Of a DNA stretch of 64,000 nucleotides, positions 51,048 to 63,492 are shown one piece after another. The notes under the pieces were generated by a model that had not been told where the DNA came from, searched no databases, and saw nothing but the letters and a program-made list of their open reading frames with translations. Every line of letters begins with the position of its first letter. The first letter of the stretch is position 1. The stretch comes from Candidatus Iainarchaeum sp. (GTDB lineage Archaea > Iainarchaeota > Iainarchaeia > Iainarchaeales > GCA-2688035), in contig NZBU01000009.1 of NCBI GenBank assembly GCA_002688035.1, positions 25,929 to 89,928 of the forward strand. Direction: 5' to 3'. The translations under genes were made by a program, and so were the position numbers.

Positions 51048-52778
51048 TTACTGCCCTGTTAAGAACTTTACAAGAGCTTCCAGGATATTTGGTGCGGCAG
51101 ACTGTTCAGGGGCTTTCTCACCCACTATTTCCGCGGCCTTTATTATTCCCCTGATTGGTTCTGTTGGACAGTCTTTTGCCTCAAAACCATCAGTGCACAC
51201 CTTTACTTCACATCCATTTGCACTCTCATAGGTCTTACATTCTACTGTTGATTCCTCTGTTTCTTCTTCCGGACAATCTTTTATTTCATAGCCATCAGTG
51301 CACTCCTTTATCTTACACCCGGCGTCATTAGTGTACTCCTTACACTCTACATCTGTTTCTTCTTCCGGACAATCTTTTACACTGTAACCGTTTGTACACT
51401 CTTTTACTTTACAGCCGTCCTCGTTCTCATACACCTTACACTCAATATCTTCGGTGCTGTCAGGACAAACTTTCTCTTTATCTCCGTTTGTGCACTCCTT
51501 TATTTTGCATCCGTTTTCAGTCTCATACTCTTTGCACTCAACAATTTCTCCAGGACATCTAACAAGTTCCTCTCCGTTTGTGCATGACTTTACTTTACAT
51601 CCGTCATCTCTCTCGTAGACTTTACACTCTACATCTTCTGTAGGGCAATCTCTAGTTTCATAGCCATTACTGCACCTTTTCACAGTGCATCCCTGCTCGT
51701 CCCTAAACTTCTTGCATTCTACGACAGGACAGACGTTTTGTAGTTTGCATGAGTTGAAAGTGTAACCGTCTGTGCATGATATCACAATACAGTCCCCTTC
51801 AACATATTTTTTGCACTCCACAGTGTCTGTTGTGGGTGGCTCCGCACAATTCACTTGTCTACATCCCTTGCTATCAACATAGGTTTCGTATTCAAGCTTG
51901 CGGTTCCTGCATGCATCTATCTTTCTGTCGATTGTACGTTCGTCAGGACAAATTATACCTGTTTTGATACACTCTATTTGTGCACAACTTGTTCCATCAA
52001 CATACTTTTGGTAGTCCATGCCTTGTACCCTGCATTTGGAGATTTGTCTGCCAATTTCTTCATCACTTGGACAAATTCTTTCTCTGCAGCGCGCCTGCCT
52101 ACAGTTGGCAGAATCTACATAGAACTGGTAGTCGAGTCCGCGAGCCTTACACTTGCGGATCATTGATTCAAGTGCGTTTCCTGTTGGGCAAGACGTTGTT
52201 GACTCAATACACTTAACATATTCACAGCCGTCTTCCACATAGTAAAGCCAAGGGGCGAGACTGTACTCTCCGCCCTTTACCTCTTTGCATGCCGCAACTT
52301 TGGCATCATTTTCTTCTTCGGTAGGGCATGAGCTCACAGGCGGTTTCACACACTCGATTTGCCTACAGCCTGAATTATCTGTAAATGTTTCATAGCCATA
52401 GCCAGCCTCTTTACATCTTACAATTTCTTGTTCAAGTTTTTCGCTTGTAGGGCAGACAATTGGTTTTATGCAGTTCACATATTTACAACCGTTCTCTTCA
52501 ATGTATATTTTGTACTGCATGTCATCTAGTTTACAAGCTCTTATTTTGTTTTCAATCTCTGTTTCCGAGGCGCAGATACTATTACACATACCCTCATACG
52601 CTACTTTAACCCCAGCAACATCAGCAAAACAATCATTACTGTATGTTTTATCATTTACTCCACAGACAGGATCATACTGTGCTGTGCATATAGTGTCCTG
52701 AGTCTCTACTGTTTCAGCACTAGTGGCTGCTAGTAGTAATACAAAAAACACTGCACTAAATCCAATTCTCTTATTCAT
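51048..52778 (-). CDS. secreted cysteine-rich multi-repeat protein with an N-terminal Kazal-like domain
   Basis: A signal peptide is present. CTAQYDPVCGVNDKTYSNDCF...GMC fits the Kazal core, including PVCG and KTY-N-C. About 6 repeats of ~45 aa follow, then about 7 repeats of ~27 aa of the form ECKxYExxDGCKVKxCTNGxExKDCP. Confidence 0.6.
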   Translation of the reverse strand: MNKRIGFSAVFFVLLLAATSAETVETQDTICTAQYDPVCGVNDKTYSNDCFADVAGVKVAYEGMCNSICASETEIENKIRACKLDDMQYKIYIEENGCKYVNCIKPIVCPTSEKLEQEIVRCKEAGYGYETFTDNSGCRQIECVKPPVSSCPTEEENDAKVAACKEVKGGEYSLAPWLYYVEDGCEYVKCIESTTSCPTGNALESMIRKCKARGLDYQFYVDSANCRQARCRERICPSDEEIGRQISKCRVQGMDYQKYVDGTSCAQIECIKTGIICPDERTIDRKIDACRNRKLEYETYVDSKGCRQVNCAEPPTTDTVECKKYVEGDCIVISCTDGYTFNSCKLQNVCPVVECKKFRDEQGCTVKRCSNGYETRDCPTEDVECKVYERDDGCKVKSCTNGEELVRCPGEIVECKEYETENGCKIKECTNGDKEKVCPDSTEDIECKVYENEDGCKVKECTNGYSVKDCPEEETDVECKEYTNDAGCKIKECTDGYEIKDCPEEETEESTVECKTYESANGCEVKVCTDGFEAKDCPTEPIRGIIKAAEIVGEKAPEQSAAPNILEALVKFLTGQ

Positions 52779-55426: not shown

Positions 55427-55747
55427 ATGCATACAAATTCTGCCAAGCCAGAAGTTTTGCACAACTTGAATAGTTCTACCCTTTCTCAAAAAGAACAAGA
55501 TATATTTGCCCTTATCCTTGAATCCTGGCCAACATCTGCTGTGGAGATAGCGGAGCATTTTGGAGAAGATCTTTCTTCCAGAGAATCCAAAAAGAAAGCA
55601 AGCACCAAATACTCCTACTATTTGCAAAAGCTTGTTGAAAAACACCTTTTGATGAGCAAGCGTGTTGGCAACGCGCTAATTGTCTGGCCGGTTCGCGCGG
55701 AAAAACTTCGCACAATCCACAATATTCTTGAGAACGAGGTGCAATAA
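55427..55747 (+). CDS. wHTH regulator (same family as the N-termini of 61808 and 62665), operonic with a V4R protein
   Basis: QDIFALILESWPTSAVEIAEHFG...YYLQKLVEKHLL parallels LIIRVLSESWPLSVKEIY...VLNELVEEKIL. Confidence 0.5.
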   Translation: MHTNSAKPEVLHNLNSSTLSQKEQDIFALILESWPTSAVEIAEHFGEDLSSRESKKKASTKYSYYLQKLVEKHLLMSKRVGNALIVWPVRAEKLRTIHNILENEVQ

Positions 55748-56313
55748 TGCTTAACACTTTCTACGACAAATTCATTTTCACCAATGGCCTCAAATACAAG
55801 AACAACAACTTCTATCTCCTCAACATGCCCTTTGTTATTGCGCCAAGCGAACTCTTCATTGGCCTACTGGAAGTGGATGACGAGGACTTCAAGAGAAAAC
55901 TTTATTATGCTACAAAGGATTCTGTTAGAAAGCATTTGATAAAAGAATTTGACCTTGACTTTGGTTTTAAGGGAGCAAAGCTTGTCACTTTCCTCGAAAC
56001 CTATTTTGTTGCTAGTGGCTGGGGCAAAATCCAAACTGTAGATCTCAATATGGGTGGCAAAAAAGCCATTGTGAAAGTTAGGAATAATCCTTTCTCCTCA
56101 CACCTACACAAAAAAGTCTCCCGCCCCTGTGACCACTTCATTCGCGGAATTCTAGCAGGGGTATTCAGCCGTGTGTTTAATGCCAAGGTTGATTGTGTAG
56201 AAGTGCACTGCGCAGCTCTCGGAGAACAAGACTGCGAGTTCATAATAAAAAAACAAGGCGAATTCAACTTAGAGAACAAGCATGTGCGAAGGCAGCTCGA
56301 ATTGGATATTTAA
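55747..56313 (+). CDS. V4R-domain protein
   Basis: The C-terminus CDHFIRGILAGVFSRVFNAKVDCVEVHCAALGEQDCEFII fits the V4R Cys/Gly pattern. Its start overlaps the stop of the upstream gene (TAATG). Confidence 0.5.
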   Translation: MLNTFYDKFIFTNGLKYKNNNFYLLNMPFVIAPSELFIGLLEVDDEDFKRKLYYATKDSVRKHLIKEFDLDFGFKGAKLVTFLETYFVASGWGKIQTVDLNMGGKKAIVKVRNNPFSSHLHKKVSRPCDHFIRGILAGVFSRVFNAKVDCVEVHCAALGEQDCEFIIKKQGEFNLENKHVRRQLELDI

Positions 56314-57413
56314 GAAATCTTTTTCAGTACAATTTGAAGCATTCTGCGAACTGGTTCTGCAGCGCCCCACAACAGCTGGTCTCCTACTGTGAAGAGTGTA
56401 ACAAAGCTAGCATCATTGTTGATGTGGCGAATTCTTCCTACTGGGACTGTGAGTTTTCCGCTGACCGCAATCGGTGTGAGTTGCCTAATGCTATCTTCCT
56501 TGTTGTTTGGAATAACCTTAACCCATTCGTTTGCTTTAGCGATTGTATTTTCAATTTCTTTTAGTTCCATTTCCTCTTTGAGTTTAATGGTGATTGCCTG
56601 GCTATGGCAGCGCATGGCCGGAACTCTTACGCAGATTCCATCTACTGGAATTTGCTGTTTTGAATTCAGTATTTTGTTTGTTTCAGCGCTTCCCTTCCAT
56701 TCCTCTCGGCTTTGTCCGTCCTCTACTTCCTTGTCAATCCATGGAATGAGGTTGCAGGCTAGTGGAACTGTAAAATTTTCTGTTGGAAAATCTGGATTTT
56801 CAATTGTTTCTTGAACTTCACGGTCTAGCTCGAGCACAGGCATTTTCTTTCCCTCGGTTGCTTTGGAGATTGTCTGCATTTGCTCCACCAGTTCAGCCAT
56901 GTTCTTGCTTCCTGCTCCTGAGGCTGACTGGTAGGTCATTGAAGTAAGCCAGTCCACCTTATTTTCTTTAAACAAACCGCCAATTCCCATTAGCATCAAA
57001 CTAACTGTACAGTTTGCTCCAATATAATTTTTCACACCTGATTCAAACGCCTCGTCTATCACTTCTCGGTTAACTGGATCCAAAACAATTACACTGTCTT
57101 TTTCCATTCGCAGGGCTGAAGCCGCATCAATCCAGTAACCATCCCATCCTTCCTTCCTTAGCTTTGGATAAACTTCTTTTGTATAGTCTCCGCCTTGGCA
57201 GGTTACAATTGCATCCAGTGAGGAAAGGGTTTTGATATCAAAAGCATCGGCAAGTTCTGGCACTTCCATGCCAATTTCTGGGCCTTTTTGGCCTACTTGT
57301 GAAGTTGAAAAAAACAATGGTTTCAATCCCTGGAAGTCGTTTTCTTCCAGCATTCTTTGCCTTAGCACTGATCCAACCATTCCTCTCCATCCGACAAAGC
57401 CAACTTTTACCAT
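56310..57413 (-). CDS. asd: aspartate-semialdehyde dehydrogenase, bacterial (gammaproteobacterial) type
   Basis: The protein is collinear with E. coli Asd and by eye roughly 60% identical to it as recalled. Shared blocks are MVKVGFVGWRGMVGSVL, IVTCQGGDYT, GANCTVSLMLM, GQSREEWKG-AETNKILN, RCHSQA-TIKLK and FTVGDQLLWGAAEP-RRML. Confidence 0.85.
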   Translation of the reverse strand: MVKVGFVGWRGMVGSVLRQRMLEENDFQGLKPLFFSTSQVGQKGPEIGMEVPELADAFDIKTLSSLDAIVTCQGGDYTKEVYPKLRKEGWDGYWIDAASALRMEKDSVIVLDPVNREVIDEAFESGVKNYIGANCTVSLMLMGIGGLFKENKVDWLTSMTYQSASGAGSKNMAELVEQMQTISKATEGKKMPVLELDREVQETIENPDFPTENFTVPLACNLIPWIDKEVEDGQSREEWKGSAETNKILNSKQQIPVDGICVRVPAMRCHSQAITIKLKEEMELKEIENTIAKANEWVKVIPNNKEDSIRQLTPIAVSGKLTVPVGRIRHINNDASFVTLFTVGDQLLWGAAEPVRRMLQIVLKKIS

Positions 57414-58145: not shown

Positions 58146-58420
58146 AATACTTTTATGTTCTCAAGATTTAAGATTCTTCCTCAAAATGCGTTATGTAGAA
58201 GTCTAATCCCTATTTGTGCGCTTTTCGCCCAAAAGGGCAAGTTTTATATATGGGATTCGCCCCAATTTTCTTAACAGGTTCTTTTGTGAGCCTGTCAGGG
58301 TGCGTTTCTGCTTGGTCTTCTCGACTCGGGAATGCATCCGTCCTTCTTATCTTTTTTCTCCAATCCAAACAACCTCAACATTTAAATACAAGTGCGGGAT
58401 TATTATATTGGTTTTTGCTT

Positions 58421-59179
58421 ATGGTTCGCACTAAGACTGGTATCCAGGGCCTTGACAAAGCTCTTATGGGTGGAATCCCTGAGGGTAACATTGTTTTACT
58501 TAGTGGTGGAGCCGGAACAGGTAAGTCAACTCTTGCAATGCAGTTCTTGATGAACGGCGCTTCTCTTTTTGGCGAGCGCGGTCTCTATATTAGTACTGAA
58601 CAAGACCGCGATGAACTAATGAAAGCAGCCAACAATTTCGGCTGGAAGCTTGATGACCTCGAGAGCAAGAATCTCGTCAAAATCGCTTACTTTGACATTA
58701 CTGAGGGAAATGACTTCCTCAACAGGGTCGATACCCTTGTCCAGAACTTTAAACCAAAGCGAATAGTAATTGACAGCATGACAACTCTCACAGATTCCCT
58801 GATGATTTCCGGCATAGGCAAAAAAGATGCCTTTTCCATGGTTCAAATACAGGAAACAGTTTCCCCTATTCCCCGAACCGAAAAGGTTGTCGCAAAAAGC
58901 ATCCTCTACAATCTCATCAAAAAACTGAAGCACTACAAGGTTACAACACTTCTTACGAGTGAACTTCCCGAGGAACACAAAGCACTGAGTGCAGATGGGA
59001 TAAGCGAGTTTATTACAGATGGTGTGATTGTATTACACTATTTGGGGATAGGGTCGGCTAATTTTAGAAACCTTCAAATTAGAAAAATGAGATATAGTAG
59101 TCATGAGAAAGATATAATTTCATATTCAATTGCCTCTAAGGGGATTGAAATCCAAGCGGAGGAGAGCTTGGAAATCTAA
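58421..59179 (+). CDS. KaiC/RadA-like single-domain RecA-superfamily ATPase
   Basis: GIQGLDKALMGGIPEGNIVLLSGGAGTGKSTLAMQF contains the Walker A, and Walker B is IVIDSMT. The start was taken at the internal ATG 58421 rather than the track start 58214. Confidence 0.65.
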   Translation: MVRTKTGIQGLDKALMGGIPEGNIVLLSGGAGTGKSTLAMQFLMNGASLFGERGLYISTEQDRDELMKAANNFGWKLDDLESKNLVKIAYFDITEGNDFLNRVDTLVQNFKPKRIVIDSMTTLTDSLMISGIGKKDAFSMVQIQETVSPIPRTEKVVAKSILYNLIKKLKHYKVTTLLTSELPEEHKALSADGISEFITDGVIVLHYLGIGSANFRNLQIRKMRYSSHEKDIISYSIASKGIEIQAEESLEI

Positions 59180-59181
59180 TC

Positions 59182-59769
59182 TTGGGGGAAAGAATGTACA
59201 AGACTTTTGCCAATCTAATACTTCATAACCAGGTTTCTTTTGAAAAGGGTAAAATGAGTCTCTTGGGGCAACCTATTGCTATACTGCCTATCGAAGAGTA
59301 CTACTATATGCAGAGAATCTTGGAGAAAAAGGGGTTAGAGAATATTATTTATTATAGTGCGAAAGAGTCTGGCATTTTGTGGTTAGATAATATGATTCCT
59401 AAATTTAAAATGAAATTAAATGATGTAGTTAAATGGGGTATTGAAATCCTGTCCATTTCAGGGTGGGGAAATCTTAAATTGAAGTTAATCGATAAAACAA
59501 ATAATAAGATGATTTTTAACTTGAGCGAGGCAACAATTGCTAAGAAATACGGTACTCATTCTTCCTCTGTTGACCATTTGCTTAGAGGATATGTTGCAGC
59601 GGCGGGAACAAAGTTTCTAGGTATTGATGTGGATGCAATTGAGCATAAATGTGTGGCAAAAGGAGATTCTTATTGCCAATATATAATTAAACCGAAAAAA
59701 GACTTCGATCAGTCCAGCCCCATTGTCAAAATCCAATTAAAAAAAGATTTTGATACCGCTATTTATTAG
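59182..59769 (+). CDS. V4R-domain protein (second copy), operonic with the KaiC-like ATPase
   Basis: The C-terminus HLLRGYVAAAGTKFLGIDVDAIEHKCVAKGDSYCQYII shows the same V4R pattern as 55747..56313. It lies 3 bp after the kaiC-like stop. Confidence 0.5.
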   Translation: MGERMYKTFANLILHNQVSFEKGKMSLLGQPIAILPIEEYYYMQRILEKKGLENIIYYSAKESGILWLDNMIPKFKMKLNDVVKWGIEILSISGWGNLKLKLIDKTNNKMIFNLSEATIAKKYGTHSSSVDHLLRGYVAAAGTKFLGIDVDAIEHKCVAKGDSYCQYIIKPKKDFDQSSPIVKIQLKKDFDTAIY

Positions 59770-60603
59770 CCAAGGTAGCACATAAATCATCTCAATAGCT
59801 AGAAGAGATATCATCGCTTTTGTAACTATGCTTCCTTGAGTGATGACTTCTTTATCTTCGATTTTTTGGTTTTTCAATAGTAAAGGGATAGAAAGGGAGA
59901 CTATAGTTGGAACTAAGTAAATCTGCTCTATAAAACCAAAAAGAATTAATATCAATGTTATAATTAATAGTCCCTCCATGGCCACAATTATTGACCTAAA
60001 AGTGTTGGTTTTCCCAAAAGTATTTGCCCAACTTCGAATATTAAATTTCTTTTCTATCTCACTATCCTCAAACTCTTTTGTTGTAGCAATTATGCCTGTT
60101 AATATAGTAAATAAGATGAAGATTTCGAGAGGGAAGAGTCTTTTGTTAATTGTCCAGGCAGCAATAAAGGGAATCACTGAATAAAATATGGCGCCAAAGA
60201 GATTGGTCGAAAACAAATATTTCCTAAAATAAAAATAGGGGTGGGTGTATAACAAAGAACAAACTATAAAAAATATAATTAACCCGGCTAGATATATACT
60301 GTAGTTTAAAGCGATAAAAATTGAAATAACATAAAAAAATAAGGATGCAAATAAAACTGTATTTGGAGATATCTCTTGTTGCGGCAAAGGTCTATCTGGT
60401 TTACTAAGCTTGTCAATTGCCAAGTCAAAAAACATGTTCAATGAATTAAATCCCATTATTGAAAGCGACAAGGTAATTAGGGGAATTAGTAATGGGCCAA
60501 AATCGACGATTCCTTGATTGAGTAAGAGGTAAAACAAAATCATGTTAATTAAATTTAAAATAACAAATTCAGGACCAATTAGTGCCATCCACTTTTTTAT
60601 CAT
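59737..60603 (-). CDS. UbiA-family prenyltransferase, likely digeranylgeranylglyceryl-phosphate synthase
   Basis: It has 8 to 9 TM helices and the Asp-rich motif NSLNMFFDLAIDKLSKPDRP. It is adjacent to geranylgeranyl reductase. Confidence 0.65.
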   Translation of the reverse strand: MIKKWMALIGPEFVILNLINMILFYLLLNQGIVDFGPLLIPLITLSLSIMGFNSLNMFFDLAIDKLSKPDRPLPQQEISPNTVLFASLFFYVISIFIALNYSIYLAGLIIFFIVCSLLYTHPYFYFRKYLFSTNLFGAIFYSVIPFIAAWTINKRLFPLEIFILFTILTGIIATTKEFEDSEIEKKFNIRSWANTFGKTNTFRSIIVAMEGLLIITLILILFGFIEQIYLVPTIVSLSIPLLLKNQKIEDKEVITQGSIVTKAMISLLAIEMIYVLPWLINSGIKIFF

Positions 60604-60608
60604 AAGGC

Positions 60609-61703
60609 TTACCTCAAATTTGTTACAATATTTCTAAATAAATCATTTATCAATCCTTTTCCTTCTATTTCTCGTCCATCAAGTTTTTTGAATATCCTAT
60701 CAAAGTCCGCATTTCTAGCAGTATCTAACATTTTCCTTATCTTCCTTTGACTTTCATATTCTTCACCTAATATGTTGTCCCATTCAACTTCATATTTTCG
60801 CATAGAAAATAGTTTTCCTTGCATATTTTCTTGAATTACTTTACTAGCCATTTCTGCTTCATCAATGCATTTGTGTATTGACCCTCCTAACATAGGTTCG
60901 CCTCCTGCAGCATCACCTATCACAATCCAATTCTTATTAGCTTTTTTGTCAATCATGCCGGTGGGAATAAAGCCACCATTAACTCGAATTATTTTTTTAT
61001 TTTTATACTTTTTTAAAATAGAAAGCGAGTAAAGACGTCTTCTAATTTCGCGATGGTCTCGAATATTCAATTCCTCTGCTCCAAAACCTAATTCTATTAT
61101 CTCGTCTCCTAAGGGAATTATCCACCCGTAAAAACCAGGGGCTAGTTCATTGTCTAGAATGGTGGTTATTTCATCTTTTGCTTTTATTTCAACCGCATAA
61201 CAAAAAACATTCTTAGGATGCGATATGCGCAATTTGTTCCTAAATTTTACTCCCAAAACGCCTGTAGCAAATATTAATACCTTAAATCCAATATCTTGGC
61301 CATTAGATAGTTTTACTGTGTGTTGTTCTAGATCAAAGTCTACCACATTCTGTTTTAATTTAATTTTGTTCTTTTCTTTTATTGAGTTGTAAAGATGCAT
61401 TTCTATTTCTCTAAGATTTACAACATATCCTCTCGTACTCTTGTCACTTTTTGAGATTATTAACCCCCCTGGGGAATAGAAGTTGATTTTTCGTATCGCT
61501 TTTATTAGGTTTTCTTTAGGTAAGGATAATTTTTCCAGGGTTTCTAAATTTATTATCCTGGGGCCATAGGTGCCAACTTCCATCCTTTTTTCTAGTGTAA
61601 CAAAATCTATTCCTTCCTTTTCAAGTGATCTAGACAAAGAAAGACCCGCGATTCCTGCGCCAATAATCACTACGTCGTGTTTTTTCATGCTATAATAAAA
61701 CAT
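60609..61703 (-). CDS. geranylgeranyl reductase family FAD-dependent oxidoreductase
   Basis: The N-terminal FAD motif HDVVIIGAGIAGLS is present. Length and the UbiA neighbor are typical of archaeal lipid saturation genes. Confidence 0.7.
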   Translation of the reverse strand: MFYYSMKKHDVVIIGAGIAGLSLSRSLEKEGIDFVTLEKRMEVGTYGPRIINLETLEKLSLPKENLIKAIRKINFYSPGGLIISKSDKSTRGYVVNLREIEMHLYNSIKEKNKIKLKQNVVDFDLEQHTVKLSNGQDIGFKVLIFATGVLGVKFRNKLRISHPKNVFCYAVEIKAKDEITTILDNELAPGFYGWIIPLGDEIIELGFGAEELNIRDHREIRRRLYSLSILKKYKNKKIIRVNGGFIPTGMIDKKANKNWIVIGDAAGGEPMLGGSIHKCIDEAEMASKVIQENMQGKLFSMRKYEVEWDNILGEEYESQRKIRKMLDTARNADFDRIFKKLDGREIEGKGLINDLFRNIVTNLR

Positions 61704-61807
61704 TAGCCTGATTTAAATAACTTTACTTGTTTCTTTTCTAACCCGAACAGACTAAATCAACCTTTTAGTTGATTTTTTAACCTTTTCTTTTCTATTAAAT
61801 ATATTAG

Positions 61808-62668
61808 ATGACTATTACTGTTCCAGAGTTGGGTGCGGGGAAGAAAGACTCTACCAAAGACCTAATTATTAGAGTCCTTAGTGAGTCGTGGCCTTTATCT
61901 GTAAAAGAGATTTATGTGCGAATAAGTCAGCATGGGAAAAATATTTCATATCAGGCTGTTCATAAAGTGTTAAACGAATTAGTTGAAGAAAAAATTTTGT
62001 CTCACTCTGGGAAAACTTTTCAGTTGAATTCTGAGTGGGTGAGGTCTTCGAAGAGTTTTTTTCACAATTTGGAAAAAAAGCTCTCTGGGAAAGCTTTGGA
62101 GGATCTAAAATATCTAAAGCCCCGGGAGTCCATTATTTTTAACTTCAATAATCTAACTAATTTTGCTCTTTTTATTGCACAAGCTTATGCTGATAAGGTT
62201 ATGATTACCGATGGGGACACAAAGGCAATAGGTATCTTCCATCATTTATTTTGGACGCCTCGCTTTAGATTTGAAGATATTTTGTTATCGAGGAAAGTAA
62301 TTGATAGCAGTCTTAGTGGGTATGTGTTAAGTGGGGGGAATTCTCCTTTTGATCAATGGGTAAAGAAACAATATTTGGCAGCAGGCTTTAATGGAGTAAA
62401 GCTTGGGGTAGATTTATCTGATTTTGAAGATGATCTATTTGTTCATGGGGACTTTGTTGCCCAAGTACACATTAGTGAAGAAGATAGAAAAAAGATTAAA
62501 GAATTGTATAATTCAGTTGGAACCGTATTAGACTTGTTCAAACTTTATATTACCAAGTTCGGAAAACCTGATACCATCAGAATCAAAGCAACGTTTTCTC
62601 GAAATCCAGTAATGGCTAAAATGGTGAGAAATCATGTTCTAAAGTTTTTTGAGGAGGATGTGAAATGA
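61808..62668 (+). CDS. wHTH plus uncharacterised ~200-aa C-terminal domain protein (paralog A)
   Basis: The N-terminal wHTH is LIIRVLSESWPLSVKEIYVRISQHGKNISYQAVHKVLNEL. It is homologous end to end with 62665..63492. Confidence 0.5.
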   Translation: MTITVPELGAGKKDSTKDLIIRVLSESWPLSVKEIYVRISQHGKNISYQAVHKVLNELVEEKILSHSGKTFQLNSEWVRSSKSFFHNLEKKLSGKALEDLKYLKPRESIIFNFNNLTNFALFIAQAYADKVMITDGDTKAIGIFHHLFWTPRFRFEDILLSRKVIDSSLSGYVLSGGNSPFDQWVKKQYLAAGFNGVKLGVDLSDFEDDLFVHGDFVAQVHISEEDRKKIKELYNSVGTVLDLFKLYITKFGKPDTIRIKATFSRNPVMAKMVRNHVLKFFEEDVK

Positions 62669-63492
62669 CTTCCCTTCCAACTCTCTTTCGTTTGAATGGT
62701 TCCTCTTCTACAAAAGAACAAATTATTTCGATTTTGTCCCATGAATTTCCTTTAAGCGCTAAGCAGATCTTTAATTATGTGTCAAAGAATTCTGGGGGTG
62801 TGAGCTATCAGGGTGTGCACAAAGCACTACAGGAGCTTGCGTTGGATAAAGTTGTGGAAAAGAGGGGCAGGGAATTCTTGCTTTCTTCTAATTGGATTAA
62901 TTCTCTTAATACTTTCTCCGGGCAGTTAAAGTACGTTTATAGCAATAACCTAAGTGAAACATTGGATAACAAGAATTTTGTGTTTAAGACAATTCATGAC
63001 TGCGACCGCTTTTTGATTGAATCTGTTGTAAAAATAGCTGGTTCTTTACCAACTACTGAGAAACCGCTTTTCGTGATGCATTGTAGGCATGCTTGGGTGC
63101 CCCTGTTCATCTCTAGAACTGAGTACAGAAATATGGTGGAATCATTAAAGTCTACAGATTGTTATGGGCTAGTGAAAAGTGAAGCCCCTATTGATAGGTG
63201 GTGCTGCAGCTTCTGGGAAAAGCAAGGCGTGAAAGTGCGTTTTGTCAGGGATATAGCAACACTTTCTGATGCATATGCATTAGGGGATTACGTTATTGAA
63301 GTATTCTACTCACCAGAAGTAAGACAAGAAATGGACAAAATTTACGACAAGACAAAACAGGTTTCTGATTTGAATATGGATGATTTATTCCACTCAGTAT
63401 TCGAAATGGAAACGGAAATCGCTGTTACCATTAACAAAAACAAGCTTATTGCAGATCAAATTCGAGAGCAGACGCTTGCTTATTTCAAGTGA
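62665..63492 (+). CDS. wHTH plus uncharacterised C-terminal domain protein (paralog B)
   Basis: The N-terminus IISILSHEFPLSAKQIFNYVSKNSGGVSYQGVHKALQEL is a wHTH. The C-terminus aligns with paralog A (LGDYVIEVFYSPEVRQEMDKIYD vs HGDFVAQVHISEEDRKKIKELYN). It overlaps paralog A by 4 nt (ATGA). Confidence 0.5.
   Translation: MTSLPTLFRLNGSSSTKEQIISILSHEFPLSAKQIFNYVSKNSGGVSYQGVHKALQELALDKVVEKRGREFLLSSNWINSLNTFSGQLKYVYSNNLSETLDNKNFVFKTIHDCDRFLIESVVKIAGSLPTTEKPLFVMHCRHAWVPLFISRTEYRNMVESLKSTDCYGLVKSEAPIDRWCCSFWEKQGVKVRFVRDIATLSDAYALGDYVIEVFYSPEVRQEMDKIYDKTKQVSDLNMDDLFHSVFEMETEIAVTINKNKLIADQIREQTLAYFK

Follow-up and report, generated by a model that had tools for sequence, protein, structure and literature searches.

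Introduction

No group of putative signalling proteins has expanded further in archaea than the KaiC-like ATPases, and the input, partner or target is known for almost none of these proteins. In a 2017 paper (mBio 8:e01959-17, cited in PMC5847659), Makarova, Galperin and Koonin reportedly proposed that these ATPases act as signal transduction hubs with varied inputs. Among the regulators with a V4R domain, MsvR is a methanogen-specific redox regulator that joins a winged helix-turn-helix (wHTH) to the V4R domain and carries redox-sensitive cysteines (PMC3729527). A literature search, the scope of which did not extend to the 2017 proposal, found no paper linking KaiC-like proteins to V4R partners. 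Here, such a pair is described from Candidatus Iainarchaeum sp., a marine DPANN archaeon (Iainarchaeota). The DNA analysed is a stretch of 64,000 nucleotides (nt) of contig NZBU01000009.1 (positions 25,929 to 89,928), called the window below; related loci are designated by numbers with the prefix L. In the window, the gene of a single-domain KaiC-like ATPase is directly followed by the gene of a small V4R protein, named V4R-B. The gene directly 3' of this pair always encodes a prenyl-diphosphate enzyme, either of the UbiA family or with similarity to terpene synthases (terpene-synthase-like, TS-like). On balance, the pair is probably a signalling module of the KaiC-hub kind, with V4R-B as its input and a link to isoprenoid metabolism.

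The KaiC/V4R-B Gene Pair

The KaiC-like ATPase is encoded at 58421..59179 on the forward strand. Its product of 252 residues belongs to the RecA superfamily and consists of one domain, as judged from the PF06745 match (188.8 bits, E = 1.2e-55, cut-off 26.6, residues 5-244) and the alignment of its orthologues. The initial annotation had named a single-domain KaiC-like ATPase with the Walker A motif GAGTGKST, and this is borne out. The ATG at 58421 is the right start, since the orthologues all begin at the equivalent MVRTK/ERVKTG position; these starts rule out the longer open reading frames (ORFs) from TTG or GTG that some gene callers picked. Walker A (58508..58531, +) covers residues 30-37. 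The catalytic glutamate E60 (58598..58600, +), placed by a HMMER alignment to KaiC, stands at the first position of the "EE" pair of KaiC; the second position is Gln in the window KaiC. The Walker B aspartate D118 (58772..58774, +; RIVIDS) was placed by alignment to KaiC and to the orthologues. Across eight orthologues, G32, T33, G34 and K35 of Walker A, E60, D118, R216, K222, R224 and H228 are invariant. With Walker A, E60, D118 and the K222/R224 finger all kept, the window KaiC is expected to be an active ATPase.

Matches in the PDB are the CI and CII domains of KaiC and the single-domain archaeal proteins PH0186, PH0284 and SSO2452. Relative to cyanobacterial KaiC, the window protein carries an insertion of ~27-30 residues after Walker B (LMISGIGKKDAFSMVQIQETVSPIPRTEKVV, 58799..58891, +), seen as a gap in the alignment to 8zn5_B. 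The window KaiC shares this insertion with the orthologues of L001, L014, L019 and L021, whereas those of L013, L020 and L023 are without it. The model for the KaiC-like archaellum protein ArlH (ArlH/FlaH) gave 61.4 bits versus a cut-off of 215, and the arl genes that an archaellum operon would contain are absent from the vicinity of the window KaiC.

V4R-B (59194..59769, +) is a stand-alone sensor-domain protein of 191 residues with the V4R domain at its C-terminus. Its ATG lies 14 nt behind the KaiC stop codon, and a Shine-Dalgarno-like GGGGGA (59184..59189, +) is found 5 nt before this start. That a V4R gene follows KaiC directly had been recognized in the initial annotation; the gap of 3 bp and the length of 195 residues given there, from a TTG at 59182, are probably to be replaced by these values. 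The TTG start, which agrees with the 195 residues of the NCBI annotation, is probably four codons too early: ATG 59194 is preferred because all 24 family members begin at the equivalent methionine.

With PF02830, V4R-B reaches 26.3 bits (E = 7.7e-6) and falls short of the gathering score, which is 31. Its assignment to the V4R family, made from the sequence alone in the initial annotation, is secured despite this sub-threshold score because the family profile matches the sensor domain of MopR (E = 2.5e-8), because PF02830 is the precomputed Pfam annotation of 25/25 relatives, and because the fold matches as well. The orthologue in L024 scores 47.7 bits with PF02830. An AlphaFold2 model computed from the 24-sequence alignment has a predicted local distance difference test (pLDDT) score of 91.5 and a predicted template modelling (pTM) score of 0.87. 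In a Foldseek search with this model, V4R-B matched over its full length the complete effector-sensing domains of DmpR, PoxR and MopR, which fill the first 18 places among the PDB matches, with template modelling (TM) scores of 0.70-0.75. The V4R protein MJ1460 and Bet3/TRAPP come next as weaker matches (E ~1e-5, TM ~0.5).

V4R-B also has a likely metal site. The candidate ligands, identified by alignment, are D127 (59572..59574), E150 (59641..59643), C153 (59650..59652) and C161 (59674..59676), all on the forward strand. They align with the zinc ligands C155, E178, C181 and C189 of MopR. E150, C153 and C161 form an E-x2-C-x7-C cluster that is invariant in the 24 family members; position 127 is Asp in 21 of them and Cys in the other three. 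The resulting D/C-x25-C-x7-C spacing of positions 127, 153 and 161 equals that of the redox-sensitive C206, C232 and C240 in MsvR of M. acetivorans (PMC3729527). The possibility that V4R-B is devoid of the first zinc ligand was considered and rejected, as the MopR alignment and the MsvR spacing both put this ligand at D127, with Cys there in 3/24 relatives.

A single-sequence search for V4R-B homologues gave three clusters, and a profile search gave 25 among 5.8 billion proteins, all of ~185 residues. All members with a source name, and the related loci from a genome scan, come from Candidatus Diapherotrites/Iainarchaeum; the family seems confined to Iainarchaeota/Diapherotrites. About 15 distinct V4R-B loci were recovered, 14 of which retain the 5' flank. 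In each of these 14, V4R-B has a KaiC gene of the same orientation as its immediate upstream neighbour, at a distance of -8 to +44 nt, and identity falls to 34% for V4R-B and 32% for KaiC across these loci. The genes further upstream vary. The pairing is far beyond chance, and the idea of a conserved KaiC-V4R pair, for which recurrence in other genomes had been set beforehand as the test, holds up.

V4R domains occur in other arrangements as well. The wider family of full-length V4R proteins, collected by an exhaustive search with a hidden Markov model (HMM; E<=1e-3), comprises 2,579 representatives: stand-alone forms, tandem duplications, N-terminally extended proteins, Roadblock/LC7 fusions and one KaiC fusion. 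The latter is a Helarchaeota protein of 599 residues in which a degenerate KaiC domain (iKaiC) is fused to two V4R domains. The database proteins P0251 and P0279 carry two V4R domains fused to a Roadblock/LC7 (MglB-like) domain, another hint that V4R domains feed NTPase-based switches.

Prenyl-Diphosphate Enzymes Next to the Pair

In the window, the 3' neighbour is a UbiA-family prenyltransferase (59737..60603, -; PF01040, 110.8 bits), with DGGGP synthase 6m31 as its best PDB match and a score below the cut-off with every NCBIfam equivalog model. The gene is convergent with V4R-B, and the 3' ends overlap by 33 nt. A convergent UbiA gene is the neighbour of V4R-B in seven distinct loci, the window among them. 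Depending on the locus, it is followed by the gene of a geranylgeranyl-reductase-family (GGR) protein, a CruF-like protein or a cis-prenyltransferase. The window has a GGR-family flavoprotein (60609..61703, -), which matches TIGR02032 (GG-red-SF) at 112.8 bits versus a cut-off of 158.8, as well as Pfam Pyr_redox_2, with GGR_cat below threshold. Apparently, UbiA and GGR lie in one operon. The GC content over 60001..62000, the UbiA/GGR region, is 0.33 versus ~0.41 in the rest of the window. We know of no earlier description of a steady link between KaiC/V4R and UbiA or TS-like genes.

In six to seven other distinct loci, the neighbour of V4R-B is a TS-like protein of ~300 residues. Genes of the TS-like family are found at L013:2659-3573(-), L018:7550-8428(-), L022:745-1608(-), L023:1327-2337(+), L024:6001-6993(+) and L025:6001-6966(+); the window, which has UbiA, contains none. 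At the sequence level, the family has no match in Pfam, NCBIfam or the PDB, the last searched by profile. Its DDxxD motif (D75, D76, D79) and NxxxTxxxE motif (N210, T214, E218) are invariant in 34 sequences and lie 135 residues apart. With a model of pLDDT 90.5, class-I terpene synthases make up nearly all of the top 50 PDB matches in Foldseek, the few others being prenyl-diphosphate synthases with this fold (TM up to 0.68). The all-alpha fold and the DDxxD and NSE/DTE motifs, for which a distance of ~140 residues is expected, are those of a class-I terpene synthase. From the model, a class-I terpene-synthase-like fold is confidently predicted for this family.

Terpene synthases were first reported from archaea as single-alpha-domain proteins with DDxxD and NSE motifs and no Pfam hit, widespread in archaea (bioRxiv 10.1101/2024.01.29.577750). 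The preprint makes no mention of KaiC. The TS-like neighbours resemble these proteins in the single alpha domain, the missing Pfam hit, the DDxxD and NSE motifs and the wide distribution among archaea, and may belong to one family with the published A0A5E4I9B1, A0A537EJD0 and A0A0E3NXY0.

In L023 and L024, the KaiC, V4R-B and TS-like genes follow each other in this order, all in one direction, and the V4R-B and TS-like genes overlap. The TS-like family itself is much wider than V4R-B and forms at least 175 clusters in Diapherotrites, Aenigmatarchaeota, Thermoplasmatales, Promethearchaeota, Bathyarchaeia and other groups. A Thermoplasmatales genome and a metagenome contig have four consecutive genes on the same strand, encoding KaiC, a 128-residue protein (u128), a FIST protein and the TS-like protein (L025:3394-6966(+), L043:10087-13660(-)). 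This KaiC is 31% identical to that of the window and keeps the insertion after Walker B. In a Bathyarchaeia genome, and in 57 of 80 metagenome TS-like loci (L026-L105), the next gene encodes a convergent membrane protein of 610 residues (L106:6987-8819(-)). It consists of an N-terminal membrane region and a MEDS domain, with weak, below-threshold matches to DUF7090 and DUF7504, which are iKaiC-like DUF families. Its versions on soil contigs are 47-93% identical to one another. MEDS, DUF835 and related domains are seen as KaiC relatives that have become inactive.

Neighbouring Genes and Upstream Region

A second V4R protein, V4R-A (55747..56313, +; 188 residues), is 25% identical to V4R-B and matches PF02830 above threshold (48.9 bits). 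The initial annotation had rightly called it V4R and had put it 3 kb upstream of KaiC; it ends 2.1 kb before the KaiC start. Its own start overlaps the stop codon of a 106-residue ORF (55427..55747, +), pointing to translational coupling. This agrees with the operon proposed earlier for V4R-A and a wHTH regulator. The wHTH identity of the 106-residue protein itself is weakly supported: its matches are to HTH_27 (E = 0.055) and Penicillinase_R (E = 0.073), the best value being E = 0.002 in an orthologue, and a profile search of the PDB gave no match. The two genes are kept as a pair in L012, L015 and L019, and the pair lies near the KaiC pair in only four distinct loci (the window, L012, L014 and L019). 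This co-location is no more than suggestive of a common circuit with KaiC/V4R-B, as had been envisaged, and the link is weaker than that between KaiC and V4R-B. On the MsvR model (NF053755), V4R-A reaches 33.7 bits versus a cut-off of 220, with the match confined to the V4R part. A Burarchaeum protein of 322 residues (P0203) was considered as a fusion of the 106-residue protein and V4R-A and was rejected, its N-terminus not being similar.

Beyond the isoprenoid genes lie two paralogues, w286 (61808..62668, +) and w275 (62665..63492, +), the latter assigned from the family alignment. The protein w286 has an N-terminal wHTH-like region and a C-terminal domain of ~190 residues, with weak FUR and Penicillinase_R matches. 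In this family of 275-residue proteins, the wHTH-like segment reads WPLTAKQI...SYQAVHK. Between one and six tandem paralogues stand beside the KaiC/V4R-B cluster in the window, L001, L005, L012, L019, L021 and L024, and one Diapherotrites genome has five or six such copies in a row (L024:7271-11536(-)). For this family, a PDB profile search returned nothing significant and Pfam only weak HTH matches.

A TATA-box-like TTTAAATA (58381..58388, +), read from the sequence, is located 33-40 nt upstream of the KaiC ATG and is a candidate archaeal promoter that would give a short-leader mRNA. A scan for bacterial promoters and terminators, whose models do not apply to archaea, gave nothing above the shuffled expectation. 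Further upstream, the direct repeat TTCGCCC(A/C)AA occurs at 58224..58233 and 58256..58265, 32 nt apart; with two copies, it may be due to chance. A search for short repeats in three intergenic regions found just two-copy repeats of 10-15 nt, probably also by chance. One lineage has, in two independent assemblies, two ORFs of 84 and 161 residues in place of a single KaiC ORF upstream of V4R-B (L018:6238-6983(+), L026:1651-2408(-)). This may be a frameshift or pseudogene, or a split gene.

Two further genes of the region were noted. A Cys-rich repeat protein of 576 residues (51048..52778, -) has a signal-peptide-like N-terminus, a Kazal-like motif (CTAQYDPVCGVNDKTYSNDCFA) and many repeats of ~35-45 residues ending in ...GC..V.C. 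A comparable Cys-rich protein of 1150 residues adjoins V4R-A in L015. The aspartate-semialdehyde dehydrogenase at 56310..57413 (-) matches the bacterial gamma type (PRK06598, 593 bits; TIGR01745, 556 bits) much better than the archaeal asd_EA (82.7 bits), which suggests that this DPANN archaeon acquired it horizontally.

A Proposed Signalling Switch and Its Alternatives

In our interpretation, KaiC and V4R-B would be encoded in one operon and make up a signalling switch of two subunits, comparable to the proposed KaiC hubs of archaea. Its KaiC subunit would be a catalytically competent RecA-fold ATPase, probably hexameric. V4R-B would be its dedicated input subunit, a small hydrophobic-ligand-binding domain with a metal site, acting on KaiC in trans. 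Binding of the ligand to V4R-B would alter how KaiC hydrolyses ATP, oligomerizes or phosphorylates itself, and this change would act on the neighbouring isoprenoid genes or enzymes, possibly via the adjacent wHTH-type proteins. The sensory role suggested in the initial annotation gains support because V4R-B resembles the effector domain of DmpR, PoxR and MopR, because the iKaiC-V4R-V4R fusion exists, and because the related KaiC of Thermoplasmatales is joined to FIST. Both the ligand and the direction of signalling are what we infer. The molecule that is sensed, or the process under control, most likely derives from isoprenoids (a lipid, a quinone-like compound or a terpenoid), because the gene 3' of the pair always encodes an enzyme using prenyl diphosphate.

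Several points weigh against this interpretation. The physical interaction of KaiC and V4R-B is a prediction only, and the output of the module is likewise one that we infer. The isoprenoid genes of the window are convergent with the pair and not co-transcribed with it. Compact DPANN genomes conserve gene order, so the neighbourhood signal may in part reflect synteny passed on within one phylum. The V4R-B family is restricted to a single lineage, and the KaiC domain of the Helarchaeota fusion is very divergent and has lost Walker A. Of the MopR residues that anchor phenol (H106, W134), H106 aligns with a hydrophobic residue of V4R-B (profile position 86, Leu/Ile) and gives no clue to the ligand. 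At most soil TS-like loci, a KaiC HMM detected no KaiC within 7 kb, and the MEDS membrane protein alone adjoins.

Instead of sensing, V4R-B might bind a hydrophobic prenyl substrate or product, with KaiC loading, unloading or delivering it to or from UbiA or the TS-like enzyme. Such binding has been proposed for BchJ, and Bet3, to whose lipid-binding fold V4R is related, binds palmitate. The steady use of prenyl diphosphate by the 3' neighbour would suit a carrier, and so would the gene overlap of V4R-B and TS-like in L023 and L024, an arrangement suggestive of translational coupling and of matched amounts of the two proteins. However, the place of V4R is taken by FIST in Thermoplasmatales and by MEDS in Bathyarchaeia, which are sensory domains and not lipid carriers, and the best structural matches of V4R-B are sensor domains of transcription factors. 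To our knowledge, no KaiC-family ATPase acts as a lipid chaperone, and a carrier system appears improbable. We give a similarly low probability to an MsvR-like sensor of redox state or metals, in which the Cys/Asp/Glu cluster of V4R-B would gate KaiC and the isoprenoid neighbours would be synteny without functional meaning. The identical spacing of the MsvR cysteines, the weak match of V4R-A to the MsvR model and the wHTH-like gene coupled to V4R-A all point in this direction. Yet the aligned residues in MopR and PoxR form a structural zinc site, not a sensor, and with Asp as the first ligand in 21/24 V4R-B proteins, no disulfide could form at that position. Passive synteny would also hardly explain why the 3' neighbour alternates between two unrelated prenyl-diphosphate enzymes, sometimes with a change of strand.

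The remaining alternatives concern the ATPase. A recombination paralogue of the RadA/RadB type (aRadC-like), acting in DNA repair beside an unrelated V4R-B, is very improbable, in keeping with the initial annotation, which had set the protein apart from RadA paralogs of DNA repair. In favour of this alternative, the protein is a member of the RecA superfamily and matches SSO2452 distantly (69.8 bits). Against its 188.8 bits for KaiC, though, the recombinase models all stay below their cut-offs (Rad51 20.9/22, RecA 26.8/27, RadB 30.5/172 and RadA 18.1/259 bits), the protein begins directly with the ATPase core, with no N-terminal helix-hairpin-helix (HhH) or other DNA-binding module, and it is strictly paired with a sensor protein. 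Least probable of all is a KaiC-based timing oscillator homologous to the circadian clock, even though cyanobacterial and other double-domain KaiC proteins are the best PDB matches. E196 and F197 stand at the positions of the clock phosphosites S431 and T432, as in the non-phosphorylated CI domain, and the single domain of 252 residues has no counterpart of the duplicated CI and CII architecture (~500 residues in clock KaiC). The protein is therefore not a clock-type KaiC. The clock-type models TIGR02655 and PRK09302 gave 114.9 bits versus 546 and 141.5 versus 408, respectively, and neither KaiA nor KaiB was found among the annotated neighbour genes scanned.

The signalling module with a V4R input, which we prefer to these alternatives, may be one case of a larger system. 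It is possible, if still doubtful, that KaiC-superfamily modules with interchangeable sensors (V4R in Iainarchaeota, FIST in Thermoplasmatales and membrane-bound MEDS/iKaiC in Bathyarchaeia) are partners dedicated to prenyl-diphosphate enzymes, namely TS-like proteins or, in the clade of the window, UbiA. They would constitute a so far unrecognised means by which archaea detect a hydrophobic metabolite and, at the transcriptional or post-translational level, adjust the synthesis of terpenoids or isoprenoid lipids. For the KaiC-like ATPases of archaea, the locus described here is a minimal case: one single-domain KaiC, one dedicated small sensor protein with a predicted fold that is known to accept small hydrophobic effectors, and prenyl-diphosphate enzymes as candidate target. 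If the link to these enzymes holds, the KaiC-hub hypothesis would gain its first pathway defined from input to target. The newly recognised terpene synthases of archaea would then become accessible through their regulation, and so would the lipid synthesis of DPANN archaea, a group in which lipid metabolism is a matter of debate.

Comparison with Known Systems

MJ1460 (PDB 2oso/2osd) and Bet3/TRAPP have their core fold in common with V4R-B. They are shorter (~150-160 residues), without the N-terminal portion of beta-hairpin and helix that V4R-B has in common with the DmpR-type sensors, and we know of no ATPase partner for either. MsvR comes closer in the composition of its domains. The 106-residue protein and V4R-A resemble a split version of it, and the Cys positions of the V4R domain are equally spaced. 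In MsvR, however, a single polypeptide holds three conserved cysteines, whereas the window has two genes, an Asp at the first Cys position and a weak wHTH call.

The closest structural counterpart of V4R-B is the A domain (XylR_N and V4R) of DmpR, PoxR, MopR and XylR. V4R-B matches the whole of this sensor domain, and the zinc positions are kept as D/C, E, C and C. In DmpR and XylR, the ligand-binding A domain controls the AAA+ domain, an oligomeric P-loop ATPase, much as V4R-B is proposed to modulate KaiC. These regulators are bacterial and carry the sensor in cis, on one polypeptide with an AAA+ sigma-54 domain and a C-terminal HTH; V4R-B, in contrast, is a separate polypeptide beside a non-homologous RecA-fold KaiC in an archaeon. 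Identity to the DmpR-type sensors is only 13-18%, the phenol-anchoring histidine is not conserved, and the MobR model gives 17 bits versus a cut-off of 999. In its organization, the pair is most like the KaiC-hub modules, in which a single-domain KaiC ATPase is operonic with a small sensory protein. This coupling of ATPase and sensor is found in the 14/14 operons, in the iKaiC-V4R-V4R fusion and in the KaiC/FIST variant.

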